Assembly (NCBI GenBank): GCA_951406725.2
Contig: OX597815.1
Span: forward strand, 171,988,001-172,052,000
Reading direction: 5' to 3'
Source of the DNA: Octopus vulgaris
Taxonomy: Eukaryota
Length of the DNA: 64,000 nt
Numbering within the stretch: the first letter of the stretch is position 1; each line of letters opens with the position of its first letter. The notes beneath the pieces are model-generated. The model saw only the letters and a program-made list of their open reading frames with translations, was not told the origin of the DNA and did no database searches. Below are positions 6,455 through 58,944 of the stretch, one piece after another. Position numbers and translations under genes: made by a program.

Positions 6455-7402
6455 TCAGTGGTTAATAGGCTGCACTGTGGCCCTTTTGAAACAAGTATTC
6501 AAACGTAACATCCGAATAAACGCATTTCGAAATTTTGGCACTTTCCATCCATATATAACTGGGTTGACAGCAGAATTAAGTAGCTGGATGATGATGGAAA
6601 AACGAATCAAAACTTCATTTGCATCCGGACTACTAAATACCTGTACTACAGCCAAAATGCAAGCTGGGAAGTTTAAAATTCCGAAAAGAATGGTGATGCA
6701 ACACAATTTGTAAGTGAAACTAATGTCATCTGGGCGATGGCCAGTTACTGACACAGCGGAGTGACGAGCATAGTAAAAAATACGGGCATAGAAATAAAGA
6801 GTTAATAACAACGGTGAAAAGAGTAATGATAGTGGCACCATCAGAAGGGCTGAAATTGTTGCATTTCCTCTCAAAAACACACATGCACGTGTCTTGTTGT
6901 CATAGGTGACATTAAGTGCTCCAGTCCACATGACAGCCATGAAGGAAGCACCAAAAGCCAAACACCAAACTGTTGATAAAATGAGGAACACGTTACGTTT
7001 AGTAAAAGTGTTCTCGTACTGAGACCTGGTCTTCATCGTCAATACAAAACGATTATATGAAATGGCAGCTAGTGTATTTATTGAAGTATAGACGAAGGTG
7101 GCTTGTGCTACCACCGTTACATGACATAAGCCAAAAGGTTGTCTGGCAAACATCATCATTGTACGTAGAGGAATTACGAAGAGGCACAAAATCAGATCAG
7201 CGACAGCTAAATTACATACAAAAGACTTTGCTTTGGTTCGAAGTTCATCAAACAAAAATATAGCCAGGATGACTAAAGAGTTGCTGAATGTGCCCACAGC
7301 TGAGATTAGTCCCAATAAGGTGACCTGAAGGGCAACAGTCCAGCAACGTGCAAAATCACACGAGCTGTCGGAGTTCACTTCTTCCATGGTTAGGTTATCC
7401 AT
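6455..7402 (-). CDS. Intronless class A (rhodopsin-like) GPCR, 315 aa, melatonin-receptor-like/orphan type
   Basis: Seven hydrophobic segments. TM1 'FSNSLVI', TM2 'NLAVAD', Cys at the top of TM3, 'ISYNRF' at the DRY position, TM4 Trp, ECL2 Cys 'RACVF', TM7 'NSAVNPVIY' and helix 8 'PKFRNAF'. N-terminal NLT sequon. Confidence 0.93.
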   Translation of the reverse strand: MDNLTMEEVNSDSSCDFARCWTVALQVTLLGLISAVGTFSNSLVILAIFLFDELRTKAKSFVCNLAVADLILCLFVIPLRTMMMFARQPFGLCHVTVVAQATFVYTSINTLAAISYNRFVLTMKTRSQYENTFTKRNVFLILSTVWCLAFGASFMAVMWTGALNVTYDNKTRACVFLRGNATISALLMVPLSLLFSPLLLTLYFYARIFYYARHSAVSVTGHRPDDISFTYKLCCITILFGILNFPACILAVVQVFSSPDANEVLIRFSIIIQLLNSAVNPVIYGWKVPKFRNAFIRMLRLNTCFKRATVQPINH

Positions 7403-20888: not shown

Positions 20889-22274
20889 TTGGGTCATCCC
20901 ATAAATAATGCGGTTTTTTTCAAATGCATGAACTAAAAGTCAGAGTGGGATGGGATAAACTACCTGCATCAACTTGCTATAAAAGTAGGTAGTAATTTTA
21001 CCTTGTGCTTATTCTTAGGGCAAATTTTGAAGAGTTCTATTTTAACAGTTCTTTTCTGGAAATAACAAGGGAGCATATTCGGCATATTTTACTTTATGAG
21101 TTCAATAAAGGCAACAACACAAAGTAAAGTGCGAGGAATATTAATGCAGTATATGGGGATCAGACAATAAGTGTAAGCCAGTGTCAACAGTGGTTCCAGA
21201 AATTCCAAGCTGGAAACTACAGCCTAGAAGACGAGCCTTGTCCTGGAAGATCTGTAGAGCTCGACGAGGATGTCCTGCAAACCCTGGTGGAACAAAATCC
21301 CATCGTAACTGTTGAGGAACTAGCAGAGAAGCTTAGATGTGGTCATTCAACCATTCATCAACACCTGCATGCCATCAGAAAGTCAGCAAATTGGGTCAAT
21401 GGGTCCCTCACATACTTTCCAAGTCTAATCGCACACAGAGAGTGAATGTGTGTTCTTCTTTGCTGTCACATCTCACAAATGAACCTTTTTTGGACCGAAT
21501 AGTAACTGGTGACAAGAAATGGGTTCTCTATAAAAGTGTCAAGTGCCAAAGACAGTGGGCAGAGAAAAGAGAAACACTGGCATCCCAGGCTAAAGAAGGT
21601 CTTCACCCACATAAGATGTTATCTGTTTGGTGGGATATGAAAGGTTCCACTTTGTTATCATTTGGTTTGGGTTTAAAAGTTCAAAGTGGAACCTTTCATA
21701 TCCCACCAAACAGATAACATCTTATGTGGGTGAAGACCTTCTTTAGCCTGGGATGCCAGTGTTTCTCTTTTCTCTGCCCACTGTCTTTGGCACTTGACAC
21801 TTTTTTGTCACCAGTTACTATTAAACCCAAACCAAATGATAACAAAGGAAATCTACTGTGTGCAATTGAGTTAATGCTAGAAAGAAAACGACCATCTCTG
21901 GTTTTTCAAGATGAAAGGTGTTCTTCAATCAGGAAAATGCTCAACCACAAATAGCAAGGAAGACATTCCAAAGGCTGGAGCAGTTTGAATGGGAAAATGC
22001 CCTACCCACCATATTGCCCCATCTGATTATCATTTATTGTGCAGTCTTCAAAATTATTTGAATTCTGTAGACAAGATCAGAACAGTACTGGAGGAGTATT
22101 TTCTGTCATGGACAAGTGAATTTTAGAGAAGGGGCCTTGCAAGTCTACTGGATAGATGGAAGAGCATTGTAGAAAATGAAGGAGAGTATATTTTAGATTA
22201 AAAAAGAACTTTGTTTATCTAAATTTTGAAAAATAAAAGTATAAAAAAGCCACATTATTTGTGTGATGACCCAA
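20889..22274 (+). mobile_element. Decayed mariner (Tc1/mariner) DNA transposon
   Basis: TIRs TTGGGTCATCCCATAAATAATGCGG / CCACATTATTTGTGTGATGACCCAA in a TA context. Transposase remnants 'KLGQWVPHILS', 'FLDRIVTGDKKWVLY' and 'LSVWWD' with frameshifts. Confidence 0.9.
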
Positions 22275-24736: not shown

Positions 24737-27017
24737 CGGGAAGCTTTATGAAAATAAACAAAAGACGAAGGCAGGTGGAAAACAAACGAACAATTGTATT
24801 AGTATGGCGCTCAGGAAATATAAATAAAACAAGTCTTTAACGTTTCGAGCCTACGCTCTTCAACAGAAAGATACACAGAGAGAAAAAACACAGAAAGAAG
24901 GAGAGAAAAAAAATGCGTGCAGTAGCTAACGAATCAACATGGCGATCTGATTTCGGCCAGAGGTCAAAGATCAAACATGAGACGCGAGAGCGAAATAAGG
25001 GGAGATAATAGGGTTGATAAAAGGGTTGAGGGACCAGCTAAAAGTGCGTGGGAGGGGTCTGGATGTGTGTATGTATAGGGTTGGTGTATGTATTAGTATG
25101 TATAAGGGTGTGTGTGTGTGTGTGTGTGTGTATGAGAGAGTATTAGTGCGTAAGATTGGTCTGGACGTGCGTATGTATGGGGTTGGTGTATGTATTAGTA
25201 TGTATTAGTATGTATTAGTACGTATTGGTATGTATAGGTGTGTGTGTGTGTGTGTGAGAGAGTATAAGTGCGTATGCGGGGTCTGGACGTGTGTATGTAT
25301 AGGGTTGGTGTAAGTATTAGTATGTACTGGTATGTATTAGTACATATTAGTATGTATTAGTTGGTGTGTGTATTAGTATGGCACATCATATGTGATGTGA
25401 TGTGTAAAGTCATGTGGTGTAGTGAGGAGAAGAGGGGAGGGGGGAGAAGAGGGGGAGAGAAGGGGGAAGAGGAGAGGATGGGGGAGAAGGAAGGGGAGGA
25501 GGGGGATGAAGGAGGAAAGAGGGAGAGGGGGAGAGAGGGAGTGAGGGAGCAGAGGGAAGGGGAAGAGGGAGGGAGAAAGAGGGAAGAAGGGAAGGGGAGT
25601 AGGGGTGAAAGGATGAAGGACTGTAGAAGTAGGGGTCGGGGGAGAAAGGATAGGTGAGGAGGGGGGGAGGGGGGTTAGATGAGGAGGGGGGGAGAGTTGA
25701 GACCAAATGGCGTATAAGAGCGAAGAGAGAAGATTAATTCCTGTTCACGGCGCAAACGGGAATCCGGATGGCCTCTGTGTAAGGACAAACCGAACACAGA
25801 TAGGTGTTGCAAGGAGTGACCGGTGGAGCGGAAATGGCGTGAGACCGGTGTGTCGTTCGCAAGGTGGATGTCACGAAGGTGTTCCGCGAACCGGTCAGCC
25901 AAGCGGCGTCCCGTTTGTCCGATATACAAGGAATTGCAGAGAGAGCAAGAGATGCAATAGATAATATTGCTGGAGGTGCAGGTGAAGGAGTGGATGATGG
26001 GATAGGGTCGATGGTGGGTGCTAGTGAGGCGGGTGGTGTTGGAGAGGTAAGGGCAAGTGCGGCAACGTGGGCGGGAGCAGGGGAACGAGCCGGGTTGGGA
26101 GGTAGGGTCAGGGAAGGAGCTATGGACCAAAAGGTCTCGAAGGTTGTGGGCTCGTTTGGAAGAGGGGAGGGGTCGGTTAGGGAAGAGGTGTGAAGTGGAC
26201 GGGTCGGACTGGAGATGACGGAAAGCTCGAAGAATGGTGCGTTGGAGACGTAGGGTCGTGGGGTGGTAAGTGAGGGGAAAAGGGAGGCGGGAGACTACAG
26301 GGCGGGTTCGGGGAGAGAGAGCAGATACACGGTCCACGGACCGTGCTCTGGCAAGGGCGGTGTGGATAGTGGTGAGGGGGTATCCACGTAGGGTGAAGTG
26401 GTGAGCCATACGTTGAGACTGAGTCTCAAAGTCATGGTCGTCACTACAGAGCCTACGTAGACGGAGGAATTGGGAATAGGGGATGGAAAGCTTGGTGTGT
26501 TCTGGGTGGGAGGAAGAGAAGTTGAGGTATGAGTGTGAGTCTGTGTGTTTGTAGTGAATGGAGGTGGTAAGAGTGGAGTGAAGAATGCTAACCGAAATGT
26601 CGAGGAAGGAGACAGAGGTGTTGGAGATAGTGGAAGTGAAGTGGAGGGCTGGATGGAAAGATTGGACGAAAGAGAGGAAGGAATCTAGATGTTCGCGGGA
26701 GAGTGAGGTGGCACCGATAATGTCGTCAATATAACGACCATATAGTTCAGGAGTGGGACCAGTGAAATTAGAGAATATTTGGGCCTCAACATAGCCAACG
26801 AACAGGTTCGCATAGTTGGGGCCCATTCGCGTTCCCATGGCCACTCCCGAGACCTGATGGTAGAACTCGCCCGCGAACGAGAAGCAGTTCAGAGTAAGGA
26901 CAAGTTCGGCCAGACGAATGAGTGTGGAGGTGTCAGGTACAGGGTTAGAGCGGAGGTCAAGAAAGTGTCGAAGGGCCTGCAGTCCTTCGTGGTGAGGGAT
27001 AACAGTATAGAGGCTTT

Positions 27018-46135: not shown

Positions 46136-46321
46136 CTATATGGAAATATGGAAAGTGACTATAATTATAATAATTTCAGATGGCATCATGAATATTACGG
46201 AAAGTTTACTTACCTTTGCCTCTATTACTGGCACATACAAATTTGATCATAACTACCACGGTTATTGCTATATTTGGAGATGGTCATCTTTTGTTAATTA
46301 AACATACACACTATTTATTTG

Positions 46322-46743
46322 AATAGAAATAATACATTTCTAAATATCTCAGAGAGATTTATGCAGTAGTGGTACGGTAAAGTAGTTGTATACTGTCAAC
46401 TTAATGTGAGTCTCATGAAGGGAATCATGCTACTGCTATTTAGCCCTAGGAAGCAGCAATGCTTCCTGTCGGCCTTGACACATTTCCTGTGTCCTTATGT
46501 TTACAAGGGGGCGATTAGCACCTTCACTCAGCTAAGCCTACACCCAGAGACTAGTTTCTGAGTCTTTGCTCATCATCAGTCTGGAGTAGCATGGCCTGCT
46601 AATTGGAGATGCCTATCTAGCTCTTGTAAACATATAGGAATTCTAATGAAATAAATTCACTGATTACAAAACTATAAAGGGCCTTTATCGTACCACTACT
46701 GCATAAATCTCTCTGAGATATTTAGAAATGTATTATTTCTATT
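46322..46743. mobile_element. ~420-bp non-coding element with ~61-bp terminal inverted repeats and an internal hammerhead
   Basis: Inverted repeats 46322-46382 / 46683-46743 (one mismatch), several internal hairpins, and no ORF. Confidence 0.8.
46544..46584 (-). ncRNA. Canonical minimal type I hammerhead ribozyme (GUC)
   Basis: Minus strand reads CCAGA-CTGATGA-TGAG caaaga CTCA-GAAAC-TA-GTC-TCTGG. All core nucleotides match, and stem III is palindromic (ACTAGT). Confidence 0.9.
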
Positions 46744-47068
46744 TCACATTAGTTTTATTACTACAAAAGAGAAAAATGGAAAAGGCAGGGCAAGAGGAGA
46801 CACATGGAATAAAGTGTCACTGAAGAGGTCACAAAATGTGTGACGGAAGGACTTTCACAGACAAATAAACTAAACAAAAAATAATACTAATATAACTAAA
46901 GTGAAGATCAAATAAATAGTGTGTGTGTGTTTACCTGGCAAAACATAACCATCCCCAAATATAAACATATTTGTTTCAAGAGACATTTTGACATCAAGAA
47001 TCTTGTAAAACAATACATAAACATACCGCAATTAACATTATCATTATTATGTAACAAAACATTTTGAA

Positions 47069-57642: not shown

Positions 57643-58434
57643 ATTTCAATAATATAGAATACCTTAATAATAATTGCTTTTCCTGTAATCTAATAAGCAT
57701 AATTTTTGTAGATTCTTTTAGCATACATAAATAGATAGATAGATAACTAAATGTCGTGATGTAGAATTTCTATGCTTATTTTTTTTTCTTTTGTTATCTA
57801 TTGACATCATCAAACTGGTTTTTCCTTCAATATTCTATTTTTTCTTAACATTCATTTTGTATGCATTCATGTATTATAGATATTATTTCAGTTCACTTTG
57901 AATTTAACCTGTTTTAGGTTACCTTGATAAGATAAGTATAAATTTTCTGATACACTGGTCTGATTGATATTATGTACCCTTTCTTTATATCTAAATATGC
58001 TGGCACAACAGAAATGATCATCAGCAATGTATGGTGTAATTATCAAATAAAGATGTGATTTTTCTCCATTCTTGTTCACATTGTTATGTATGTGTGTGTA
58101 TGTATAAACACATACATACACACATACAATGGTCTTCTTTTACTTTCAATTTTCCAAATCCACTTACAAGGCTTTTGGATGGTCATGGATTATATACAAC
58201 AGGGCATAAGAAGTATCAGATGCAGCATGCAAGAGAGAAAACTATATTTGTTTGGACATGTGATGCGTATGAATGAAGACAGCTGTATAAAGAAGTGCCG
58301 GTCACTTGCCTAAGATGCCATGCAATAGGACTGAACTCAAGACTACGTGGTTGGGAACCAAACTTCTTAACAACATGGCAACACCTGTGCCTATCATAAA
58401 CACTGACAAAATTACATTTGAAATAAAGTCTTAC

Positions 58435-58944
58435 CTGAACATTCAAAATCATGGCATACATTGTTCTTTTATTGTCTGTCTGAAACTGCTCCATATCATT
58501 TGTAATAAGGCCTTGTAGAAAACTAGAAGTATCTGTGCCAGCAAGCTGAATTAGGCCCCGAGATTTCAGATGAAACAGTTTAACATTATTCAGCTTTTTA
58601 ACTGAAGAATTCCCTACATCTGAGGTAAACGGATGTGATTTTATTCTATGATCAATCTTACACCTATTAACTATTTGATTACAAAATAAACGAGATGCCC
58701 TGAAACCACTGGAGCTTTTTGGAAAGCATCTTCTAAAGAAAGCATTTGAATAACTTGAGAAATATTCTTCAGATAAATATGACAAATGCCTCGAATAAAA
58801 ATTGGCTAAATTTGTTTCTAAAAGCTTTCTGGGGGTTCTTTGTAAAGACTTAAATACTGAATATGAACAACAATTAATGGCCGAAGATATGGGAACTTTT
58901 TTCAAAAATGGTTTCATAGACAGTGAGGTGAATTTCTGAAGCAT
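58435..58944 (-). CDS. IBA57: IBA57/CAF17-like mitochondrial Fe-S assembly factor, coding exon 1 (170 codons)
   Basis: The ATG directly follows a pyrimidine tract and AG acceptor. Encodes a basic Ser-rich presequence, then 'SRGLIQLAGTDTSSFLQGLITND...AMILNVQ'. Donor CAG|GTAAG, phase 0. Confidence 0.9.

Follow-up and report, generated by a model that had tools for sequence, protein, structure and literature searches.

The stretch of DNA analysed here (the window) comprises 64,000 nucleotides of the Octopus vulgaris genome (assembly GCA_951406725.2, contig OX597815.1, positions 171,988,001 to 172,052,000), a genome of 2.8 Gb that is rich in simple repeats. On the minus strand, the window carries an uninterrupted 315-aa frame of the rhodopsin-family GPCR type (6455-7402; Pfam 7tm_1, E 1e-33) and a 242-aa open frame with no Pfam match (58216-58944), part of which may correspond to the N-terminal region of a mitochondrial protein of folate binding / Fe-S assembly. 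The plus strand holds the remnant of a mariner-type transposase (21337-21717; Pfam Transposase_1), and a decayed tandem repeat of ~50 bp at 45792-45955 matches a dispersed repeat found beside several other loci.

The element studied here spans positions 46322 to 46743. Its ends form an inverted repeat of 61 nt (46322-46382 and 46683-46743; 98% identity, one mismatch), with 300 nt between the arms, and the minus strand of this interior contains a predicted type I hammerhead ribozyme with a minimal palindromic stem III, ACUAGU (46544-46584), identified by pattern match, fold prediction and the co-changes of stem II in sister families. The 5' part of the motif consists of CCAGA (46584-46580), CUGAUGA (46579-46573) and UGAG/CUCA closed by a 6-nt loop, and the 3' part of GAAAC-UA-GUC followed by UCUGG (46548-46544), placing the predicted cut site at the 46549/46548 boundary of the minus strand. 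The core pattern matched once in the window against 0.02 matches expected. The inverted repeat enclosing a minus-strand hammerhead, proposed in an earlier sequence-only reading, was confirmed. An Rfam search, in gathering and E-value modes, gave no hammerhead family match. When the inner 300 nt were folded without the arms, the minus strand scored z = -5.3, compared with z = -2.3 for the plus strand.

The insertion lies within an older repeat family. Alignment to other copies identifies the target as an inverted arm of that repeat (46263-46321, minus strand), split by the insertion, and the family alignment assigns the rest (46744-47025, plus strand) to a remnant of the arm at about 46744-46762 and a direct piece at 46760-47025. 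Other copies of this repeat read AAAGTGAAGATCAAATAAATAG uninterrupted across the insertion site. The older family (1618 candidates, best non-self match 81%) has head-to-head pairs of its own, and a decayed hammerhead-like motif is found near 46820-46858. At the window copy there is no target duplication, and about 2-4 bp of the target are missing.

A DNA search for relatives of the element returned 2441 candidates, with a best non-self match of 92%, and exact hammerhead-core patterns gave 580 and 317 matches against 2 and 16 for reversed controls, counts that take in sister and more distant families. Ninety loci were drawn in three samples (best-scoring, exact core and exact 3' motif), leaving 75 after removal of 15 duplicates; this set is non-random, the best-scoring and exact-core samples requiring the ribozyme region, and its end positions are BLAST ends. 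Element positions are counted along the minus strand, with 46743 as position 1. Across the 75 distinct copies the repeat unit is 350 nt long (positions 73-422; 39.7% GC), and the window holds one full unit at 46322-46671 on the minus strand (40% GC), delimited by the partial tandem junction 422|73 that occurs in 31/75 copies. No ORF over 15 codons and no RT/GIY-YIG ORF was found on the hammerhead strand of the unit; its longest ORF being 15 codons, the element was rejected as an autonomous Penelope-like element (PLE).

The two sides of the unit behave differently across the 75 copies: 5' ends are scattered, and 67 of the 3' ends are confined to two fixed sites separated by about 57 nt. Of these, 47 map to site A (positions 358-367), where a GUUG..CAAC hairpin has its base (46377-46401, minus strand), and 20 to site B (positions 416-422), which likewise coincides with a hairpin base (UAGAAAU..AUUUCUA; 46322-46342, minus strand); the other eight 3' ends lie elsewhere. 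A minor clustering of 5' ends was seen at positions 73-76, the unit boundary adjoining site B (11/75), and at 143-161, just upstream of the ribozyme (12/23 core-selected copies), which may reflect a pause site or an effect of sampling. The unit layout is shared by sister families of 69-80% identity, in which the two end sites also look the same by eye. Long tandem arrays were not seen, the maximum being 1.7 units in the 350-nt family and 2.4 in a sister family; two complete ribozymes one unit apart occur at one family locus (L039) and one sister locus (L164), which could serve as sources of monomers. The hammerhead core is intact in 29 of the 38 copies not selected for it, and core sites in decayed copies had changed by 2.1% against 4.0% per site; this extra conservation is weak and may be due to composition. 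As members of an ageing dispersed repeat, the sampled copies are in decay and lie about 4% away from their source.

Hammerhead sequences are widespread in this genome beyond the family. Among the loci inspected (L132-L181) there are many further hammerhead families with GAAACUAGUC in common, including a 314-bp tandem unit (L135/L136). A 339-bp sister subfamily was also found, its matches among those listed clustering on contig C3 at about 4-7 Mb, and a 1.4-kb near-perfect palindrome (98.6%; L151:1-1395, G000:C1 near 167.89 Mb) is flanked by two hammerhead-like motifs placed head-to-head.

A head-to-head inverted piece is present at the 5' side of 37/75 copies and missing from the other 38. The inverted arms span 18 to over 280 nt, a single 518-nt span being explained by a later insertion, and 24 of the 37 inverted outer ends lie at 406-422. 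In the window copy this piece is an inverted copy of the last 61 nt of the unit (the tail, positions 362-422), placed at 46683-46743 on the plus strand by alignment across copies. Thus, what had been read as a second terminal inverted repeat is the A-to-B tail copied in reverse, in the window insertion only. The sequence at the inverted junction (46672-46687, minus strand) consists of an 11-nt linker (46672-46682) overlapped by a 5-bp mini-palindrome, TAAAG-GCC-CTTTA (46687-46675).

Target duplications of at least 9 bp were found at 16 of the 42 loci without simple-repeat flanks, whereas 60 shuffles of the flanks gave 1.7 (maximum 5). With two (TA)n cases left out, 14/40 scorable copies have duplications of variable length, about 11-16 bp; they accompany 12 of 19 copies with an inverted arm and 2 of 21 without one (P = 0.0007). 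The flanks of the 42 scored loci are 75% AT, simple repeats form the 3' flank in 36/75 copies, and visual inspection suggests an overlap of a few bases with the target at several junctions.

The window copy taken alone, with its 98% identical arms and no ORF, fits a MITE, that is, a non-autonomous DNA transposon with 61-bp terminal inverted repeats and, by coincidence, a hammerhead inside. Non-autonomous DNA transposons of this kind leave a short, fixed target duplication. The duplications of the octopus family are variable and absent at the window copy itself, half of the copies are armless, arm spans vary, 5' ends are scattered and partial tandems account for 31 copies, all of which makes a MITE extremely improbable. 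The DNA-transposon-like ends of the sequence-only reading, and the constant termini that it had proposed as a check, did not survive this comparison; its other two suggestions, a retrozyme-like RNA element and a PLE-type terminus with an inverted 3' piece, are supported, the first by the low-GC, self-paired, non-coding unit with its type I hammerhead and the second by the two fixed 3' ends, the inverted pieces and the duplications. Plant LTR retrozymes, which have a type III hammerhead in their LTRs and a 4-bp duplication, were discarded given the type I motif, the missing LTR pair and duplications of 11-16 bp.

To get a view of the RNA structure, paired positions were counted in an alignment of 27 rows (13 family and 14 sister copies), cleaner than the gappy 20-row alignment on which RNAalifold had been uninformative. 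The window copy supplied the structure evaluated, and because the changes follow subfamilies they represent few independent events. In this alignment 87.8% of the cells are paired, and two-sided pair changes occur in 63 cells, compared with 27 in shuffles and 7-15 in slid-partner controls; by a stricter count, 14/78 pairs show a two-sided change, a value matched by 35/500 shuffles. A long imperfect rod of about 145 nt is predicted to extend stem I around the ribozyme (positions 107-160 with 199-250; 46494-46637, minus strand), with compensatory changes in sister families at pairs 112-246, 117-241, 121-237, 129-229 and 153-205, and the stem II pairs 172-185 and 174-183 change in concert in the same families. 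Two further hairpins (46442-46493, minus strand; alignment pair counts) are formed by positions 251-267 (GACACA) and 270-302 (GGAAGC). The second varies in a compensatory manner (282-291 is GC in 13 rows and AU in 13; 278-295 is GC or AU) and the first is conserved within the family and partly in the sisters, which upholds both hairpins of the sequence-only reading, as well as its expectation of covariation outside the core (rod and GGAAGC hairpin). Its nested blocks extending stem I are all present as sequence and fared unequally: TATGTTTACAAG/CTTGTAAACATA is a family feature with compensatory changes, and CTAC/GTAG and ATTAGCA/TGCTAAT rest on substitutions private to the window copy. Element position 204 is C in 62/63 copies, position 142 is C in 46/49, and TGCTAAT occurs in 1/27 aligned rows. 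The closed rod of 420 nt is likewise private to the window copy, since it exists only because that copy has its inverted arm.

The hammerhead, earlier described as perfect, has its core, and the U-A pair that closes stem II is found in only 19/62 copies, with a C.A mismatch in 39/62 and U.U in a sister family. The fold with the lowest predicted energy has an alternative pairing that spans the core, with the hammerhead fold 2.9 kcal/mol above it, and the ACUAGU palindrome of stem III is predicted to self-pair at -6.2 kcal/mol. Both the self-pairing and the non-minimal energy of the hammerhead fold agree with the dimer model given in the available text of PMC6765202.

The outer ends of the head-to-head copies follow a simple rule. 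For 30 of the 37 loci, each outer end could be assigned to A (356-368) or B (405-422); L020 and L021 are possibly one duplicated insertion. Of the 30, 28 combine one A end with one B end (21 A/B and 7 B/A), B/B occurs twice and A/A never (Fisher P = 1.8e-5). The tail is thus carried at one end only in 28 of 30 copies. The tail sequence lies in the B-ended arm of the 21 A/B copies, whose A-ended arm often extends further 5'. Neither arm appears to have been copied from the other, because the arms are often not nested (73-363 and 259-420 in L002; also L016 and L017). The family has two subfamilies in a 31:25 ratio, and the arms belong to one subfamily in 17 of 18 callable loci (four more were uncalled), with an arm-arm divergence of 7.9% against 8.4% between copies. 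Twelve of 14 A/B loci have target duplications. Taken together, the A/B ends point to two-ended priming at two RNA start sites, and we infer that both nicked target strands would be primed on one kind of RNA, in a single event using A and B. A tail "often at one end" is already stated qualitatively in the available text of PMC8557442; no count of A/B pairing and no two-ended model was found in the main texts of the open-access literature searched.

An origin of the arms by self-priming, with a cDNA folding back on itself or on an antisense template, would leave the class of the element unchanged, and has been proposed for inverted arms in the available text of PMC3846280. The window copy, one of the two B/B exceptions, conforms to it: its short arm is nested in the long arm, 60/61 bases are identical and the mini-palindrome sits at the junction, so that a fold-back origin is plausible for this arm. 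Locus L014 also fits, and the shared subfamily of the arms agrees with this reading. As a general explanation it is nevertheless unlikely, since in many A/B copies neither arm contains the other (the three non-nested loci named above), and the strict A/B pairing together with the duplications argues for two primed ends.

The relation of the copies to the ribozyme cut site was evaluated in the 3'-motif sample, where 17/29 insertions cross the site and one starts there (counting the longer arm for L065); the cut site is therefore not seen as a 5'-end hotspot in this sample (1/29). Since a cut linear monomer cannot template copies that cross the cut site, the template would be an uncut multimer or a circle, two forms that DNA alone cannot tell apart. 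Assembled contigs from four runs (three studies, their RNA origin being guessed) cover 22-25 of the 29 bins of a family copy; such contigs cannot show strand, ends or circles and carry no weight in the present reading.

The genome was searched for an autonomous partner. It does contain autonomous PLE families whose frames are open, and none with the terminus of the 350-nt element was found in protein searches that were saturated by two large families, a more distant query protein returning the first of them again. The first has a copy in the window itself (25675-27015, minus strand, continuing downstream to about 24730), 5'-truncated and belonging to a very young family of at least 150 copies at 99-100% identity, with a 4.47-kb tandem unit, frames of up to about 1200 aa, a CxxC linker, insertion in (TA)n and an atypical hammerhead-like motif in its terminus; this family is presumably Neptune-like. 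It was rejected as the partner because its DNA shows no homology to the element, its motif differs and it has a single end, in (TA)n. In a second autonomous family (L216-L241 and L246) the frame is 781 aa long, and visual inspection places a hammerhead-like motif, with a UUGAUAA core, close to the (TA)n end; this family and several older GIY-YIG families were set aside, their ends being unrelated to the element, and the one weak match to the element, at L230, was attributed to a distant sister repeat inserted nearby. The sampled autonomous families thus have different hammerhead-like motifs, (TA)n ends, no homology and no two-site ending. As no sampled partner shares the terminus, the case for PLE mobilisation rests on the insertion signature and not on homology.

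The same search bears on whether the copies are an independent unit at all. Truncated PLE insertions look much like them, and an origin of retrozymes from such ends is proposed in the available text of 10.64898/2026.07.22.740005, so that the octopus copies might be 5'-truncated ends (solo pseudo-LTRs) of an autonomous PLE. Every copy that reaches past position 73 (31/75) continues into position 422 of its own unit, and no PLE coding sequence lies upstream in frame in the 125 loci scanned, PLE fragments near three of them being read as separate insertions; we therefore hold this origin to be improbable.

Considering the fixed 3' ends, variable inverted arms, partial tandems and duplications of 11-16 bp, which together constitute a PLE insertion signature, the window element is very probably a non-coding hammerhead repeat of 350 nt, likely a non-autonomous passenger of a Penelope-like retrotransposon and of the animal non-LTR retrozyme kind, whose arm is likely a by-product of insertion. 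The features of PLE-mobilised sequences that are present comprise, besides the fixed 3' ends, 5' truncation, partial tandems, inverted arms and AT-rich or microsatellite targets; those of retrozymes comprise the type I hammerhead, a non-coding unit of 170-400 nt with GC below 45%, a self-paired RNA and rare tandems. Judged from genomic copies, every sequence feature of animal non-LTR retrozymes that can be looked for is present. Several observations count against the PLE-passenger reading: no autonomous PLE with this terminus was found among the families sampled and the tail measures about 57 nt against the published 30-40; long arrays were not seen, the hammerhead fold is not the minimum and stem II is mostly C.A; the window copy lacks a duplication and departs from the A/B rule; the 14/78 pair changes were reached by 35/500 shuffles and reflect few independent events; and cleavage in vitro was absent in 8/9 retrozyme dimers tested, according to the available text of 10.64898/2026.07.22.740005.

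A mechanism can be proposed along these lines. The usual template would be a tandem or circular RNA, and not the cut linear monomer. A PLE protein, combining a reverse transcriptase with a GIY-YIG nuclease, would make one nick in each strand of AT-rich DNA, with about 11-16 bp between them. One nick would prime reverse transcription at site A, and its counterpart would do so 57 nt further 3', at site B; A would be the first and B the second start of reverse transcription. Joining the two truncated cDNAs head-to-head would yield the inverted arms and the target duplication, and priming from a single strand a plain truncated copy. The ribozyme, probably dimeric through its ACUAGU palindrome, would cut multimeric transcripts into monomers able to circularise. 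The window copy would then be an unusual product with two B ends, for which fold-back on its own cDNA is a possible origin. That the copies record how Penelope-type enzymes insert animal retrozymes, with a single asymmetric complex priming the two nicked strands at two different fixed sites of one circular or tandem RNA, strictly one strand per site, is a tentative proposal to which we give slightly less than an even chance. If true, this one-site-per-strand rule would jointly explain the one-end tail, the head-to-head repeats and the 11-16-bp duplication, and would tie retrozyme circles to PLE machinery.

PLEs have been called a "strong candidate" for the mobilisation of animal retrozymes (main text of PMC7229834), and the origin of the tandem, inverted and tail structures of PLEs is called undefined in the available text of PMC8557442. 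Both which enzyme mobilises retrozymes and how PLE structures form would become testable, the substrate for such a test being small: an RNA of 350 nt whose two end sites are mapped and whose A/B rule is obeyed by 28/30 loci. For annotation, the family is a warning that lone PLE-type insertions can look like MITEs.

The element class is already known and the window copy as such is ordinary, the A/B end rule standing out more than the MITE-like shape; no description of the 350-nt family was found in the papers searched. Repeats of 350-390 bp in Mytilus and of 331/353 bp in the axolotl are reported as animal non-LTR retrozymes in the main text of PMC7229834, where the word "inverted" is absent. 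The octopus element shares with them, as that text presents them, the type I hammerhead, the low-GC and self-paired non-coding unit of 350 nt, duplications of more than 4 bp and the coexistence of PLEs in the genome, and the weak base of its helix II, with U.U or C.A variants, resembles the U.U mismatch of the axolotl HHR_Amex2. It differs in that its copies are mostly dispersed monomers and partial tandems, half of them head-to-head; its own cleavage and circular RNA are predictions.

Insertions of EN+ PLEs and their pseudo-LTRs, as described in the available texts of PMC8557442 and PMC3846280, show the same 5' truncation, partial tandems, inverted 5'-truncated copy, optional tail at one end, variable duplications, microsatellite bias and hammerhead. 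In contrast to them, the octopus unit has no RT/GIY-YIG ORF, its tail is about 57 rather than 30-40 nt long, and no matching autonomous element was found. The pLTR-related retrozymes of Xenopus (available text of 10.64898/2026.07.22.740005) have in common with it the proposed origin, a similar unit size and dispersed monomers; there, the evidence consists of co-occurrence and pLTR phylogeny, whereas the octopus case is built on insertion junctions, no homology to a pLTR having been found among the families sampled.

An experimental parallel is Poseidon PAc of Anolis, whose tail is defined in vitro by two internal start sites lying downstream of the hammerhead; extension there affects both DNA strands, uncut RNA serves as the main template and a dimer is predicted (PMC11167929). 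The octopus element is likened to it by its two sites downstream of the hammerhead and its AT-rich targets. No homology between RNA and target was seen for Poseidon PAc, whereas the octopus junctions, by eye, overlap the target as described above. Likewise, in vitro, Poseidon PAc displays no strand preference between its start sites, while the ends of the octopus genomic copies pair strictly A with B (PMC11167929).
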